The notes under the pieces are model-generated. The model worked only from the letters and a program-made list of their open reading frames with translations, was not told the DNA's origin and did not search any database. The translations under genes were made by a program, and so were the position numbers. Of a DNA stretch of 39,688 bases, positions 5,480-32,076 are shown piece by piece. Origin of the DNA: a virus (taxonomy: Duplodnaviria > Caudoviricetes); the IMG/VR virus record IMGVR_UViG_3300049167_000219, positions 1 to 39,688 of that record, one strand, 5' to 3'. How positions within the stretch are numbered: position 1 is the stretch's first letter; every line of letters starts with the position of its first letter.

Positions 5480-6478
5480 TCAATTTTGTGGAGCGCGCTC
5501 GTAGATTTTAACGCTGCTGACTTGATTGGCGACTACACCAATATCGCCATACTTTAGTGAACACTCGGGCGGAAGACTTTCATCCATAAATTTTAGATAC
5601 TCGGCTACAATCTCAGCGTCACTTGATGGAGAAAGTATTTTTGCTAGCTCAGATGCGACAGAAGTTAGAGATATAATTCCAAGGGTAATATCCGCATCGA
5701 CATCAGAACTGTATACAATCCCGTGGTTCCATAAAAAAAGTATACTATAGGTCTTTGCCTTCATCGCCTCTTTTACAGATAGCCCCAATGCCGCGTGAAC
5801 AAGCCCAGCGGCTTCGAGATTATTGACATAATTCAAATATTTACCGCTCGTAAATTTCTCCAGACGCAAAATATAATCGTTACTTATCGCGTACCGGATA
5901 AGATATTCGAACTCAAGTGCGGTATTTTTGTCCAGCATCGAAACGGCATGCAACGTGCGACGCGAGAACGACCCGGCTGCTCTAATTTCTCCAGCTAAAA
6001 CGCGCCCCCACAAATGACGGAGTTCATCTGAGGAGGCCTGTTCAGCGTACGACCCGAATAGATTGAGCCAATCCTCCGATGGAGCTTCAACGTTCTCATT
6101 GGGCATATCTGCCCGCAGATTTTCAATCGCGATAGCAGCGACGCTCTCTCGATTCACCTGAGACCCGACTAGTTTTTGCGCCCAGGAGTCCATCGCGCGT
6201 TCGACGATTTCAGGCTCGGAATCTAGTTGCCCGATCGCCTTTTCGACGAGAGCCTTTTTGATCACGGCTCTCGCATCGGTTTCGTCCTCGATGCCTCTGC
6301 GAATTTGGTCGCCCTTTGCACCAATTATCTTAATCCAGGCTGCACCTGCATCTCCTGTCGCGCCCACAACATGAGCGATCGCCTTAACTGCCCCGGGTAT
6401 CTTGCCGTTATTGACCCATTCGTCGAGCCATTTGCCAATCTGAGAAACAGTCGATGTTGGGAGGTCGTTCATGTGCAT
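5480..6478 (-). CDS. DUF2806-like protein (moron)
   Basis: EDWLNLF..YAEQASSDELRHLWGRVLAGEI..GSFSRRTL motif; visibly AT-rich. Confidence 0.8.
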   Translation of the reverse strand: MHMNDLPTSTVSQIGKWLDEWVNNGKIPGAVKAIAHVVGATGDAGAAWIKIIGAKGDQIRRGIEDETDARAVIKKALVEKAIGQLDSEPEIVERAMDSWAQKLVGSQVNRESVAAIAIENLRADMPNENVEAPSEDWLNLFGSYAEQASSDELRHLWGRVLAGEIRAAGSFSRRTLHAVSMLDKNTALEFEYLIRYAISNDYILRLEKFTSGKYLNYVNNLEAAGLVHAALGLSVKEAMKAKTYSILFLWNHGIVYSSDVDADITLGIISLTSVASELAKILSPSSDAEIVAEYLKFMDESLPPECSLKYGDIGVVANQVSSVKIYERAPQN

Positions 6479-22200: not shown

Positions 22201-22761
22201 TCAGGCGGCCTGACGGTTGTGCAGGCCTTCCTGCACTTCCTCAATAATTTTCGCGGCAAATGCCGGCAGGTCAGCCGGCTTGCGCGAGGTCACGACACCA
22301 TTGTCCGCAACGACCTCGGAGTCCTGCCACTCGGCGCCAGCGTTGATGAGATCCTGCTTGATCGTCTTAAAGGACGTTAGCTTGCGCCCTTTGGCGATGC
22401 CGGTGTCGATCAGCAACCACGGGGCATGGCAGACAGCCGCCACAACCTTGCCCTGGCGGTAAAACTCCTTGATCAACGCGAGCGCCTTGTCGTTGCCGCG
22501 AAGCGTATCAGGGTTCATCTGGCCGCCGGGGAGAACGATCGCGTCGTAGGCGGACGCATCGACACCATCGAGCGCCTTGTCGACTTTGACCGCGCGTCCC
22601 CAATCCTTTTCATCCCAGCCCGTAATCTCGCCGTCTTCCGGCGAAGCGACATGAACGGTCGCGCCTGCCTCTTTCAGCTTTGCCTGCGGCACCTCGAGCT
22701 CAGACTGCTCGAAGCCGTTGGTTGCGAGAATGAGAATGCTCTTGCCTGTAAGGGCGCTCAT
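22201..22761 (-). CDS. PfpI/YhbO (DJ-1 family) general stress protein
   Basis: GFEQSEL, YDAIVLPGG, AVCHAPW nucleophile Cys, TSRKPADL. Confidence 0.93.
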   Translation of the reverse strand: MSALTGKSILILATNGFEQSELEVPQAKLKEAGATVHVASPEDGEITGWDEKDWGRAVKVDKALDGVDASAYDAIVLPGGQMNPDTLRGNDKALALIKEFYRQGKVVAAVCHAPWLLIDTGIAKGRKLTSFKTIKQDLINAGAEWQDSEVVADNGVVTSRKPADLPAFAAKIIEEVQEGLHNRQAA

Positions 22762-27729: not shown

Positions 27730-28127
27730 GCTGCCACCTCGACCTGAAACAGGTCCAACGGCTTCCCGTCGAATAGGTCCACACGGCAGTAGCCTCGGGA
27801 CACGTCTGGAGACCGGACGATGGAAGCGCCTTGGGCGTTGCTGTCGTTGGCGATGATGCCGGCCGGCTTTTGCAAGAAATCCAGTGTGGCCTTGATGCGG
27901 TTGTCGATATCGCCACGCATGGATAGCGCGACCGATATCTGCGCGTTGAAGTGGCCGGCGAAGAATGGGAACCCGCCCCTGGGCTTCTGCTCCCATAGGC
28001 TGTTGAGCGCGCGTTTCTGCCAGGCCTTGTAGGCCGGGTTTAGGTAGGTCTTCCCGGTGCGACGGTTCACGCGCCAGATGATGTTCGCCGATGGCGCGAG
28101 AGGCAGGTTGAGCGTGATCGCCATCAT
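27726..28127 (-). CDS. RusA-like Holliday junction resolvase
   Basis: PSAN..W, DIDNRIKATLD, IIAND motifs. Confidence 0.85.
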   Translation of the reverse strand: MMAITLNLPLAPSANIIWRVNRRTGKTYLNPAYKAWQKRALNSLWEQKPRGGFPFFAGHFNAQISVALSMRGDIDNRIKATLDFLQKPAGIIANDSNAQGASIVRSPDVSRGYCRVDLFDGKPLDLFQVEVAA

Positions 28128-28462
28128 TGGCCGCGCTCTCGGATAAGGCGCTCTGCCGCTTGCCGATCGAACTCATGCCGGGGAATGCCGGCGCGGCGGC
28201 AGTAGTCCGCGATCAGAAGCTCCAGCTCTGGGGCGATGCCCGGCGTCTCGACGATGCTTATGCTGCGAGCCGATTTCGCAACCCGCCGAATGTACCCCCG
28301 CTTCTCCAAGCGGGAGATCATGCCGGCCACTGCGCCGCGGGAATTGATGCCCAGAGCCCTCGCCATCTCGGTGAAGCTCGGCGCGTGGCCGTCTCGCTCG
28401 ATCGCGGAGCGGATGAAGATCAGCAGATCCCCAAGGCGTGGGGTGAGGCCGGCGCGCGTCAT
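28124..28462 (-). CDS. LexA-type DNA-binding-domain protein without peptidase domain
   Basis: LTPR..IR..IERDGHAPSFTEMA..LG..S....LEKRGYIRR...ARSI. Confidence 0.82.
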   Translation of the reverse strand: MTRAGLTPRLGDLLIFIRSAIERDGHAPSFTEMARALGINSRGAVAGMISRLEKRGYIRRVAKSARSISIVETPGIAPELELLIADYCRRAGIPRHEFDRQAAERLIRERGQ

Positions 28463-29019
28463 GCTGCCGCCCTCGCCTTGTCAATGCCGAGGCGGCGGTC
28501 CCATGCTGCAGCGACGCGTGGGCCGGAGATGCTGAGACCGGCGCAGTGGTGGCAGTATGGTTTGCCGGGGATCGCCTTATTGCCACAGAAGAATTTCTGG
28601 TCGAGGGGAGGATTGCCGACCCAGAGCGGCCATTTGCACAGGCCATCCTTGAGCGCGAAGATTGTGATGCGTGCGGGCGTCCAGTCTTCGGAGGCCGTGA
28701 TCATCTTCGCCTCTCGCTGGTCAAGGCGTGCTGCAGCGATCTGGTCGACAACGGTCGCATCCGTCACGCCGCCATAGGTAGCGAAGACCTTCGGCCGCTT
28801 TGGCGGCGGCGGCGCGCCCTTCAAGACCAACCGCAAGACAGGCTGACGCTGAACCTTCGTGGCCGCGCTGGCGAGGTCGATGTTGCGGCGCGTGCATCGG
28901 CCGATCACGGCGTTCCGGGTGACACCGAAAACCTCGGCGATCTGCTTCGCCGAAAAATCCGGCGCCATCTCGCGCAGCTTGGCATCGTGTTCGTCCGTCC
29001 AGGTGAAGGATTTCGTCAT
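28459..29019 (-). CDS. gcrA: GcrA-family regulator
   Basis: [19 protein letters not shown] and CKWP...FCG...PYCHHC. Confidence 0.88.
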
Positions 29020-29786
29020 GCATGCTCTCCGTAAGGCGAGCAGTTCCCCAAGGCTGCACGGCGGAGAAAAGCCGGGATATCGGGCATCTCTCCGCTGGAG
29101 GATCGGACAACGGCCGCCGGTTGGACAGCGCGCGCCGCGATGGCGTTCGCCTCGGCGAGTCCGGGAATTGATGCGGGTCTCTCCCCGCCTGTCACGCCCG
29201 CGGTGTCGCGCTGTTGCTCGGCCGAGTATTGGGCCTCACGCTGAGGACAGGACGTTTTCTCGCTGCCTGGAAGATTTGTTGCGGTCTCTCCCGCCGTCAC
29301 ACCACTCGTTTCGGCCACCACAGCCCCGGCAGGTGTCGCGTCGGGTTCGGGGGATTCAACTTCGGCGACAAGCTGATCGGCCCCGTTGCCGGCCGGCGCG
29401 CTGATCGGGCGCGCTTGCGTATCCTTGCTTGTCTCAAGGTCTGGTGCCGGGCGGGAGGCCCGCTCGGAAATGGATGATGCAGAGCGCGCCATGCTGGTGC
29501 GGGACGAGAATCCCGGCGCGGCGGCGCGGCCAAGGGGCGTGTCGGCATATTCGCCAACGGCCTGCATGTAGAGGTCGAGGATCGCTTCGAACTCGGCGCG
29601 TTCGTTCGCGTCCATCTTGCGAAGAGCGACGACTTTGCGGAGCACCTTGACGTCGTAGCCGTTTCCCTTGGCCTCGGCGTAGATCTCCTTGATGTCGTCC
29701 GAGATCGTCTTCTTTTCCTCTTCGAGACGCTCGATGCGCTCGATGATGCTCTTGAGCTGGTCGCCCTGCACTGGATCGTCCATCAC
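29016..29786 (-). CDS. gapR: GapR (DUF2312) domain protein with long C-terminal extension
   Basis: [56 protein letters not shown]. Confidence 0.9.
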
Positions 29787-30257
29787 GCGGCCCTTTTCTG
29801 ATTGGTCTTGGATTGAATGGCGGCGCAGGCTTGCCGAGCGTGCTCAATCGCTTTGGCCGCTTGCTGCAGTTCGCGTTCGATCAGCGTCGCGTCGACTGGG
29901 CTGAGACCGTCAGCGACGAGATCGGCGTAAACTTTGCCGAGGTCCGCGATCGACCATGACGGCGCCAACCGACGCGTGGATGCAGACCTTGCCCGCAGGC
30001 CCGGCCTCTTCGGCAGCGAGGTCGAAACCCAGCATCGCGGCCATTGCCTTGGTGACGATCGGCTTCCCGACAAACGCCTCCAGCTTCGAAAGCTGAAAGA
30101 CGTTCATGAACGCCTCCGGTGGGTCGACGTGCATGCGACCCATCTGGGCTTTCTTGACGCCCACGGCTCCGCCGGCCTCTCCGCACCCGCCCGCTTCCGC
30201 GATCAGTTCGCGCATTGCGGCGTGGATCCGTTTCTCCCTGGGCGTCATCTCGGTCAT
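29783..30257 (-). pseudogene. CII-like regulator split by a frameshift near 29951
   Basis: N-half MTEMTPREK...GKPIVTKAMA...VGAVMV and C-half IADLGKVYADLVADGLSP.. lie in different frames. Confidence 0.65.
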
Positions 30258-30561
30258 TGGCGGTCTCATCGATTTGGGGAGACGGAGGTTTCGAAAATCC
30301 CGGTGCGCAGTCGCAATCGCCGCGCTAGGTCTCAGGCAGTGAGTTGCGGAGGCGTGCAGTGGTTTCGGGTCTTGGAATGAACGGGAGGCAGCTTCTGGCG
30401 CTGCTGAACCGGCCAGTTGCCGACAGGGCGGCGCAGAACGACAACCGCCCTGTCGAGCCGGCGACCGACCTGTTCGGAGAGGAACAGGTTGAGCGACACA
30501 GCGACGCGCGGAAGAAACCGAACCGGCGGAAGCGCAGGCGCGGCCATTTCGGCTGAGGCGC

Positions 30562-30663
30562 TCATCGGACAAAGCCTCCGACGAGTGCGAAGGTCATGAC
30601 GAATGACGCGAACATGCAGGCAATGGAGCCGGGATTTGCCTGGAGAGACGCGAGCAGGTTCAT
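30562..30663 (-). CDS. Small hydrophobic peptide, 33 aa
   Basis: ATGA overlap with the cro stop; MNLLASLQ...FALVGGFVR. Confidence 0.4.
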   Translation of the reverse strand: MNLLASLQANPGSIACMFASFVMTFALVGGFVR

Positions 30664-30908
30664 GCTGCCCTCTCAGCTTCTGGCGCGGCGAAAAAATCGC
30701 CGGGCGTAAGATCGATGTTGTTGGTCTGGGCGTAAGCCAGCAGTCCGCGGGCATCGTCGTACGGGATCACGCCGCCTGTGCCGCCTTTTTCCTTCGGGTA
30801 CATCCATCGATAGACTCGAGAGACATGCTTCCCGGTGACAGCGACAACATTGTCGATGCCGATTTTTCGGATGATGGAGGATGCGGGTTCAAGGCGATGT
30901 GCGCTCAT
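30660..30908 (-). CDS. Cro-like repressor
   Basis: 82 aa HTH, VSRVYRW..PKEKGGTGG.IP; divergent from cI. Confidence 0.8.
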   Translation of the reverse strand: MSAHRLEPASSIIRKIGIDNVVAVTGKHVSRVYRWMYPKEKGGTGGVIPYDDARGLLAYAQTNNIDLTPGDFFAAPEAERAA

Positions 30909-30917
30909 AGGCGCTTA

Positions 30918-30992
30918 TTTGCGATAATCGCGATTTCATTGTCAAGGCAAATTCGCGATCTTCGCGATGGATAATTTTGCGCATTTCGCAAA
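30918..30992. promoter_or_regulatory. Three operators between cro and cI plus cro promoter
   Basis: TTTGCGA-TAA-TCGCGAT, TTCGCGA-TCT-TCGCGAT, TTTGCGC-ATT-TCGCAAA; minus-strand TTGACA at 30940-30945. Confidence 0.8.
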
Positions 30993-31005
30993 CAGTCTGC
31001 GGACC

Positions 31006-31767
31006 ATGGATGATCCGCAGTACGAATTTAAGCGATGGTTGGCCGAAAAGGTCGCCCCACACGGAACGATCACGAAACTGTCTGAGGCGACCGGGATCGC
31101 CAAGGACAAGATCACGCGATCGAAAGAAACGGAATCGACCGACCCGAAAAAACGGCGGCAGGTTCCCATCCATGAAATGCGGGCCATCGCTGAGTTTTTC
31201 GGAGAGGTGCCGCCTGGCTTGAATTGGGCTGCGCCGACGACGAGCGGCGACCAAGCGCCTCTATCAAACGAGCTTCGCCCCGCTCCAGCCGGGGAATTAA
31301 TCCCAATCCGCGTATCGGGTCGAGCGAAGGCGGGCGAATTTATATCAGTTGAAGACCTTGGTGATTGGGAAGAGCCAGAGACGATTTACGACACTCGCGA
31401 TGAGCGCTTTCCCGAGGCGAGGCACCTCGGCTTTGTCGTCGATGGCGACAGCATGAATGCGCTCAAGCCGATACCGATTCCGGATGGCGCCCGCGTCTCC
31501 GCCCTGGCCTACGAGGATATCTCCGAGAGCGTTCCGCTTCGCGACGGCATGACCGTAGTTGTAGAACGCACTCGCCATGGCGGCCTCGAACGCGAATGGT
31601 CCGTAAAGCAACTCGAGATTTACGACGACCGGGTCGAGTTCCATCCGCGGTCAACGAACCCGCGACACAAGCCGATCGTCGTGGCCCGCAACAATAACGC
31701 GGACGACGGGATGATGGTGACCATCATCGCATTGGTTCGAGGGTGGTCGACTAAGCTAAGCTGGTGA
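31006..31767 (+). CDS. cI: CI-like repressor with S24 peptidase
   Basis: N-terminal HTH, Ala-Gly site (AKAGEF), GDSM Ser, VKQL Lys; start 31006 or 30967. Confidence 0.9.
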   Translation: MDDPQYEFKRWLAEKVAPHGTITKLSEATGIAKDKITRSKETESTDPKKRRQVPIHEMRAIAEFFGEVPPGLNWAAPTTSGDQAPLSNELRPAPAGELIPIRVSGRAKAGEFISVEDLGDWEEPETIYDTRDERFPEARHLGFVVDGDSMNALKPIPIPDGARVSALAYEDISESVPLRDGMTVVVERTRHGGLEREWSVKQLEIYDDRVEFHPRSTNPRHKPIVVARNNNADDGMMVTIIALVRGWSTKLSW

Positions 31768-32076
31768 AAACGCCTGCTCGGGCCGCGTGCTAAAATCGAT
31801 CTTTGCAAGCTGGTCCTCGATCTCCCGCATCCGTTCCCGCGAGGGCGGTCCAGCGTAAAGCCCACGACCGCCTTCGCCCGCCTCGCCGAGTATCGGTATC
31901 ACCCTAGGCCGATCGCCCAGGCTCATATCGACAATCGAGAATTTCAGGTCAGGGAAGGCATGGTACAGCCGCGCTTGCGTTGCCTCCTTGTCTGCCGACC
32001 ACTCCCGCACCCGCCCGGACGGCGGGAAAACGGAAAACTCAGTTGCCTCAGGCAGTCCGCGATGCCAGCTCCTCAT
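31756..32076 (-). CDS. Hypothetical protein, second gene of the SOS-box operon
   Basis: GAGG RBS, ATGA coupling to the upstream gene. Confidence 0.65.
   Translation of the reverse strand: MRSWHRGLPEATEFSVFPPSGRVREWSADKEATQARLYHAFPDLKFSIVDMSLGDRPRVIPILGEAGEGGRGLYAGPPSRERMREIEDQLAKIDFSTRPEQAFSPA

Follow-up and report, generated by a model that had tools for sequence, protein, structure and literature searches.

A temperate-phage GapR protein with a conserved FtsZ-tail-like motif behind a long, predicted disordered arm

Why does a phage DNA-binding protein carry, close to its C-terminus, a peptide that resembles the tail of the bacterial division protein FtsZ? This question arises from the IMG/VR virus record IMGVR_UViG_3300049167_000219 (Duplodnaviria; Caudoviricetes), which we analyzed as a whole (39.7 kb; 39,688 nucleotides, hereafter the window). 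A preliminary description had proposed that an open reading frame (ORF) on the minus strand, 29016-29786, here called the gapR-tail gene, encodes a GapR domain joined by a disordered linker to an FtsZ-type tail. The frame is open over 256 codons and runs past the GapR domain, as had been proposed. The start codon, however, is more likely the ATG at 29783 (255 amino acids; 29016..29783, minus strand) than the GTG at 29786, because relatives begin with MDDP and the ATG overlaps the stop codon of the upstream gene (TGATG). The stop codon overlaps the start codon of the downstream gene (ATGA). One spanning contig (depth 46) has no differences in the gapR-tail region; this contig is possibly the source of the window DNA and is therefore not an independent confirmation.

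Judged from its sequence, the protein is a true member of the GapR family with a new architecture, and its tail is a real, selected and portable FtsZ-tail-like tag. Anything beyond the statement that the peptide is selected and FtsZ-tail-like is what we infer. The GapR/DUF2312 domain was placed in the first 80 residues, and this assignment is sound: residues 1-80 (29544..29783, minus strand) are identical to PDB 6CFY, which we take to be the GapR of Bosea, at 70 of 80 positions. Pfam GapR_DNA-bd (PF10073) covers residues 9-78 (E 1e-33; 115.2 bits against a curated cut-off of 22.6). It is the only Pfam match of the protein, which has no tubulin-like GTPase domain. The Caulobacter GapR residues E28, K34, K42, K49, K56, R65 and K66 are kept and K59 is replaced by Arg; the aligned phage residues are E18, K24, K32, K39, K46, R49 (for K59), R55 and K56, so that the E28-R65 pair is kept. 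The DNA-contact and structural roles of these residues are described in PMC7373187. The AlphaFold2 model has helices at 4-40, 45-56 and 59-80, and the block forms a confident three-helix fold (pLDDT 72-97).

Behind the domain, 153 residues rich in A, S, P, G, E and T (A 31, S 19, P 14, G 13, E 13, T 12) lead to the motif, as had been noted. Residues 81-207 (29163..29543, minus strand) form a linker that is a mosaic among relatives and is predicted to be disordered; pLDDT is below 50 across most of residues 92-233, and short helices are predicted at 209-219 and 238-241. The motif itself comprises residues 232-242 (29058..29090, minus strand), with DIPAFLRR exactly at 29058-29081 as first reported. 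Thirteen poorly conserved residues, ending in GEHA, and the stop codon follow (29016..29057, minus strand). From the arrangement GGAGAG...ATGA, the last codons (GE-x-A) seem also to supply the following gene with its ribosome-binding site and start.

Is the motif real, and is it selected? By chance, 6e-5 occurrences of [DE]IPAFLRR are expected over all six frames of the window. When the eight motif codons were compared with those of four prophage relatives, 12 were identical, 16 differed synonymously and 4 non-synonymously, all four being D/E exchanges. The preliminary description had predicted that the motif would be conserved while the linker drifts, and this is what we found: in nine relatives of the close clade IPAFLRR is 86-100% identical and the linkers are 7-43% identical. 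All codon families vary across the 84 viral motif matches described below, and on this variation we rejected an origin as a DNA or RNA signal. Thus, as far as codon changes can tell, the motif is selected as protein. A second conserved element, which the preliminary description had overlooked, is a predicted helix at residues 208-219 (29127..29162, minus strand); it accompanies the motif in this clade. It is 67-100% identical in eight relatives whose linkers are 9-43% identical, and its codons show 21 synonymous and 6 non-synonymous changes against the four prophages. A viral scan for this element gave nine matches: three lie in GapR-tail genes, which have the motif too, and six in unrelated frames or proteins.

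We next used the best 120 of 959 GapR homologues (the window's own protein included), of which 104 have tails of at least 50 residues and are called long GapRs here. A loose form of the motif is present in 23 of the 104 and the strict form in 12, against 0.4 and 0 in 300 shuffles. In a second set, 26 of 79 carry the motif; the profile used there itself contained the motif, so this set is enriched. One homologue (P0037) has the motif N-terminal to GapR. A tree of 183 GapR domains (quick mode, 90 columns) requires 27 motif changes, against 43.4 in shuffles. Repeated gain or loss of the motif on GapR is therefore only suggested, because strong branches force just three of these changes.

We then asked how the motif relates to the FtsZ tail of the likely host. 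Among 301 Hyphomicrobiales genomes, the GapR of genome G249 is by far the closest to that of the window (86% identical), and on this ground its genus is taken as the likely host. G249 also has a second, short GapR (L284:4319-4594), which is 84% identical to the window's domain. The FtsZ of G249 ends in EEDHLEIPAFLRRQAN. The tail of the genus reads EIPAFLRRQAN and the window motif equals seven of its eight core residues, so the likeness to the FtsZ tail that had been pointed out is borne out. Among 111 genomes of the genus, four hold a prophage GapR-tail gene, each with EIPAFLRR and each followed by a GcrA-like gene; two of the four copies sit on a strongly diverged GapR domain. A loosened pattern gave matches at or below the control level in the 111 genomes and is uninformative. 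Across the 301 genomes the pattern occurs 255 times, spread over 235 of them, and its reversed control about 15 times; the pattern is thus nearly single-copy. All 30 of the host matches that were fetched are FtsZ. Together with five further host tails they make 35, and nearly all of these fit the consensus [DE][DE][QH]L[ED]IP[AT]FLRRQ[AST][NST]-stop, with Leu at -1 in 35/35, Asp at -3 in 32/35 and FLRRQ in 35/35 (the search pattern itself dictates part of FLRRQ). Among the matches read, the motif thus appears to belong to FtsZ alone in these hosts. The window motif contains the core [DE]-I-P-x-F-L-R-[RK] with an acidic-hydrophobic lead-in, in which Met stands at -2 and Pro at -1 and the spacing differs; as in FtsZ, it follows a predicted disordered linker. 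In the GapR-tail copies (50, one of which is probably a chance match) the lead-in is often Met/Phe-Pro and the Ala position tolerates D, E or P.

The tag is not confined to GapR. We scanned IMG/VR with back-translated DIP[ADE]FLRR and obtained 84 matches (46 non-redundant, by rough clustering on the flanks), against 7 (5) for a scramble control and 14 (6) for a control with Ile and Leu swapped. The frame is stop-free for 30 residues upstream in 42/46, compared with 1/5 and 3/6 in the controls. In the flank outside the search pattern, Leu stands at -1 in 22/46 and Asp at -3 in 18/46; Leu or Met occupies -1 or -2 in 34/46, compared with 2/5 and 0/6. Read in this way, the unsearched flank of the viral copies converges on the acidic-Leu lead-in of FtsZ. 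Of the 84 matches, 45 lie within 20 residues of a stop codon, and 39 lie farther away, internal or N-terminal. A Pfam scan of 50 hand-picked carrier ORFs out of the 84 identified 13 MT-A70 methyltransferases (some with ParB), four weak helix-turn-helix (HTH) matches, two replication initiator or primosomal proteins, one helicase, another GapR, a DUF3102 and a DUF3310 protein; 27 had no Pfam match and none of the 50 matched the FtsZ family. The MT-A70 (ParB-fused) methyltransferases are thus the largest annotated carrier class (L013, L017, L019, L022, L024, L060 and others). Phage replication initiators of phrog_1408 (L006-L009, L020 and L147) end in the same eleven residues as the window motif, and one motif-bearing copy of this family sits in a Rhodospirillales metagenome-assembled genome. 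On these sequence comparisons, the tag is portable, carried by phage proteins of many unrelated kinds. The preliminary description had regarded the protein as a special GapR-FtsZ fusion, and this view has to be given up, since the tag also rides on so many other proteins, is missing from most long GapRs and is replaced by another module in close relatives (see below).

Several further searches bear on the range of the tag. A form of the motif in which Asp precedes the Arg pair gave 31 matches in viral contigs (26 non-redundant; counted without a scramble control) with the same acidic-Leu lead-in; in 201 host genomes this variant did not exceed chance (10 matches vs 18 in the control). DIP[ADE]FLR[KN] gave 33 viral matches (17 non-redundant) with a weak flank signal and many repeats of one large protein family. 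A genome-collection scan with PDIP[ADE]FLRR gave 41 matches, three with an FtsZ signature and about eight plausible carriers by eye, the remainder being chance-like. A tblastn search of annotated phages with the 24-residue L019 motif stretch, which is insensitive for short motifs, returned one record (Bradyrhizobium phage). A PDB search with the 24-residue tail gave no matches in a library that holds no chains under 20 residues. FtsZ-type endings in KQA gave three matches in viral contigs. One lies at a contig edge and is possibly the end of a host ftsZ, and one has no assignment. The third is a 67-amino acid phage ORF (L254:1188-1391, minus strand) with a weak CsrA-like start (E 0.085), which ends in LDIPAFLRKQAD. 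By its letters this is a complete FtsZ-type ending and perhaps the cleanest single mimic seen; we take LDIPAFLRKQAD to be the beta/gamma-proteobacterial form.

Long GapR tails also bear other exchangeable tags: among the 104, Q-x-D-L-E occurs in 25, an acidic-PF tag in 6 and a four-cysteine (Cys4) module in 5. The first reads Q-[IVT]-D-[LI]-E-[ED]-A-I (P0012, P0017, P0023, P0031 and others; 0.03 in shuffles) and faintly resembles a sliding-clamp motif. The second reads acidic-PF-G. The Cys4 module reads C-x5-C-x7-C-x2-C, a pattern found in 15/183 long GapRs, and P0007 and P0135 carry both it and the helix-plus-motif ending. In P0014, P0025, P0027, P0079 and P0111, GapR is fused to the FtsK gamma domain (PF09397), which is a second link between a phage GapR and a division-site protein.

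What could such a tail do? The FtsZ tail is reported to bind FtsA and, in Caulobacter, FzlC (10.1101/632075; 10.1101/2023.09.08.556907); that of E. coli binds MinC, SlmA, ZipA and ClpX (PMC7999717), and growth of E. coli is inhibited by free fragments from the FtsZ C-terminus (PMC10769210). GapR is described as a tetramer around DNA (PMC7373187). The genus of G249 has ftsA, and minC is present in 5/5 of its genomes. Because the FtsZ tail docks partners, free fragments inhibit growth, GapR is tetrameric and the host genus has ftsA and minC, we favor a decoy, with a rough probability of 0.45: the GapR tetramer would present four copies of an FtsZ-like tail, which would compete with FtsZ for FtsA, FzlC or MinC and so delay division. 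The gene would be expressed early, after prophage induction. The phage GapR would likely form a DNA-encircling tetramer, and its four arms would act as decoys for these tail binders with a gain in avidity, which might extend to tetramers mixed from phage GapR and the 86%-identical GapR of the host. Division would then likely be delayed during lytic growth. Phages commonly block division and T7 benefits from it, according to PMC13423816. We modeled the tail (residues 218-250; alignment of 23 rows) together with the FtsA of G249 (residues 20-412; alignment of 29 rows); the scores of 0.04 and 0.00, obtained without controls, count neither for nor against binding. FcrX of S. meliloti was considered as a partner and rejected, since it apparently has no need for the FtsZ tail. 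A wider form of the idea seems doubtful to us: alphaproteobacterial phages would repeatedly have added a portable FtsZ-tail plug to unrelated DNA proteins, and on GapR it would make a DNA-sliding, four-armed decoy, possibly co-assembled with the GapR of the host, through which a nucleoid occupied by the phage would draw off the membrane anchors of FtsZ, a phage-made nucleoid occlusion by mimicry.

A number of observations weigh against the decoy. FtsZ ends in a QAN-type sequence, whereas 13 unrelated residues follow the window motif, and the following Gln of FtsZ (+8) is present in only 2/50 GapR-tail copies. Phe is kept in 35/50 (background 1.9%), which is looser than in FtsZ. The first Arg position is Asp in 15/50, and Asp was not seen there in the host tails read; this Arg corresponds to E. 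coli R379, where charge reversal is reported to abolish FtsZ function (PMC3983244). The tag is optional, because 81 of the 104 long GapRs do not carry it. L001-L005, which are short prophage GapRs that share the N-terminus, lack it, and the close relatives P0006, P0008, P0011 and P0062, which share part of the linker, have the Cys4 module in place of the motif ending. The annotated carriers are mainly DNA enzymes and regulators, which a division decoy would not require. Finally, KQA endings are rare in viral contigs although FtsA is near-universal.

Other functions were weighed as well. The tag might dock ClpX, since the carriers (replication initiators, methyltransferases, a helicase and HTH proteins) are of the kind that ClpX handles. 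Lambda O and MuA are reported to be substrates of the ClpX N-domain, and R379/K380 to be determinants in FtsZ (PMC3983244); the basic pair at the end of the motif is well kept, partly because the pattern requires it. However, degradation of Caulobacter FtsZ needs a free terminal Ala-Asn right after its conserved peptide at the C-terminus (CTC), and replacing or blocking it stabilizes FtsZ, as described in PMC4285227. The window protein ends instead in GEHA, 13 residues beyond the motif, and the phage copies in general lack an Ala-Asn-type end and are often internal or N-terminal, as the +8 position, the 39/84 copies more than 20 residues from a stop and P0037 show. Moreover, the Ile-Pro-x-Phe-Leu core is reported to matter little for E. 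coli ClpXP, L378A being degraded faster without GTP (PMC3983244); yet Phe is conserved in the phage copies far above background. We therefore consider ClpX docking rather improbable.

Alternatively, the tag may be a phage-wide docking signal for another receptor, such as a replication or partition factor of host or phage, that prefers acidic-Ile-Pro-x-Phe-Leu-basic, so that the likeness to FtsZ is convergence. The Asp variant would fit such a receptor, being common in viral contigs (on the count without a scramble control) and at chance level in hosts, as would the other exchangeable tags and the apparent bias to alphaproteobacterial phages. Against this, the motif belongs to FtsZ alone among the host matches read, none of which pointed to another conserved host protein as its owner; the viral flank outside the search pattern approaches that of FtsZ, and one phage copy reproduces the complete FtsZ-type ending. 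We give convergence on another receptor as little credit as ClpX docking. It is also conceivable that the tag engages the membrane anchors of FtsZ for another end, holding phage DNA (in complexes for replication or excision) at the membrane or mid-cell while division proceeds. The tag is indeed found on DNA-binding proteins, to which long flexible linkers attach it as in the linker-plus-tail layout of FtsZ, and the DNA contacts of GapR are kept. But the tag survives on strongly degenerate GapR domains (Pfam E 1e-9; L315, L316) and on small proteins without a recognized domain (27/50 scanned carriers without a Pfam match), and GapR, which is not sequence-specific, would tether host DNA too; tethering thus seems a poor explanation. 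A neutral by-product, either a read-through extension with a chance match or the imprint of a DNA or RNA signal, could accord with the lower GC content at third codon positions in the linker (0.69 vs 0.82 in the domain) and with last residues shaped by the ribosome-binding site of the next gene, but is very improbable given the excess of synonymous changes in the motif, the varied codon families, the enrichment among long GapRs over shuffles and the low chance expectation in the window.

The setting of the gene is compatible with early expression. The window has a temperate, lambdoid-type layout. One arm contains integrase, Erf, YqaJ and NinB, and the minus-strand order is CII-like gene, gapR-tail gene, GcrA-like gene, LexA-type HTH gene, DNA methyltransferase, replication initiator and NusG-like gene, then terminase, portal and capsid. 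A CI-like repressor gene is divergent (30967..31767, plus strand; phrog_4 E 2.2e-10, Peptidase_S24 E 2e-4). Because of the position of this repressor and the lambdoid layout, the gapR-tail gene would belong to an early lytic operon just after the immunity region, in line with the early role first ascribed to it. A promoter scan of 28000-31800 found no sigma-70-type site, and no RNA data set containing this DNA was listed among the sequencing runs. The CII-like gene upstream (29783..30254, minus strand) is split over two reading frames: compared with the intact CII of L315, 29910-30254 corresponds to the N-terminal half and 29783-30073 to the C-terminal half. The single contig that spans this gene, possibly the source of the window DNA, has no indel there. 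The downstream GcrA-like gene (28459..29019, minus strand; PF07750 E 3.5e-20) is the neighbor in 4/4 prophages of the genus. A 216-kb contig encodes an identical gapR-tail protein, which is consistent with an integrated prophage. Elsewhere in the window, a DJ-1/PfpI family gene (22201-22761, minus strand; E 1.8e-53) lies between the NusG-like and terminase genes, and a DUF2806 gene (5480-6478, minus strand), probably a moron, lies in a low-GC stretch (0.51) of the tail region.

How does the protein compare with known systems? It shares the three-helix domain, with its DNA-contact and structural residues, with the GapR/DUF2312/UPF0335 family (PF10073; PDB 6CFX, 6CFY, 6CG8, 6JYK and 6OZX), a family characterized by tetramers that encircle DNA and stimulate type II topoisomerases. 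However, cellular and crystallized GapRs have 80-97 amino acids, and the phage protein is longer by an arm of 175 residues, which bears a conserved helix and the FtsZ-tail-like motif. Phage-borne GapR is already known (PMC12185513); 68 annotated phage records match GapR and none covers 80% of the query. With the C-terminal linker and CTC of FtsZ it has in common an oligomeric core, a disordered linker of free sequence and then acidic-hydrophobic-[DE]IPAFLRR. In contrast to FtsZ, it has no tubulin domain, its lead-in is EMP instead of DHL and 13 unrelated residues replace QAN. Among phage division inhibitors, DicB acts on FtsZ through MinC. Lambda Kil, Rac KilR, Qin DicB and T7 Gp0.4 are likewise genes of prophages or of the early phage phase for which a delay of host division has been proposed (PMC13423816). 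They are mutually dissimilar and target FtsZ itself, whereas the phage GapR would copy the FtsZ tail and occupy its partners. E. coli SlmA is similar as a DNA-bound oligomer that acts on division via the FtsZ-tail interface (PMC7999717). SlmA, however, is a tail receptor that binds specific sites; the phage GapR presents a tail and is not sequence-specific, so that we propose it as a mirror image that grabs the anchors of FtsZ. In the literature searched, which left most subscription journals, including the original GapR papers, outside, we found no phage FtsZ-tail mimic and no GapR with such an arm.

The named phage division inhibitors target FtsZ itself, and one such complex triggers immunity, according to PMC13423816. 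A copied FtsZ docking peptide, if the decoy is true, would be a different route, and one that the host could hardly escape without breaking its own division. The natural variants of the tag (with Asp in place of the first Arg, or without the terminal residues) form a specificity series for asking which part of the tail is recognized by FtsA, FzlC, MinC or ClpX. As its fold and DNA binding are solved, GapR offers the cleanest test. Because the tag occurs on dozens of unrelated phage proteins, the identification of one partner would annotate many unknown genes.
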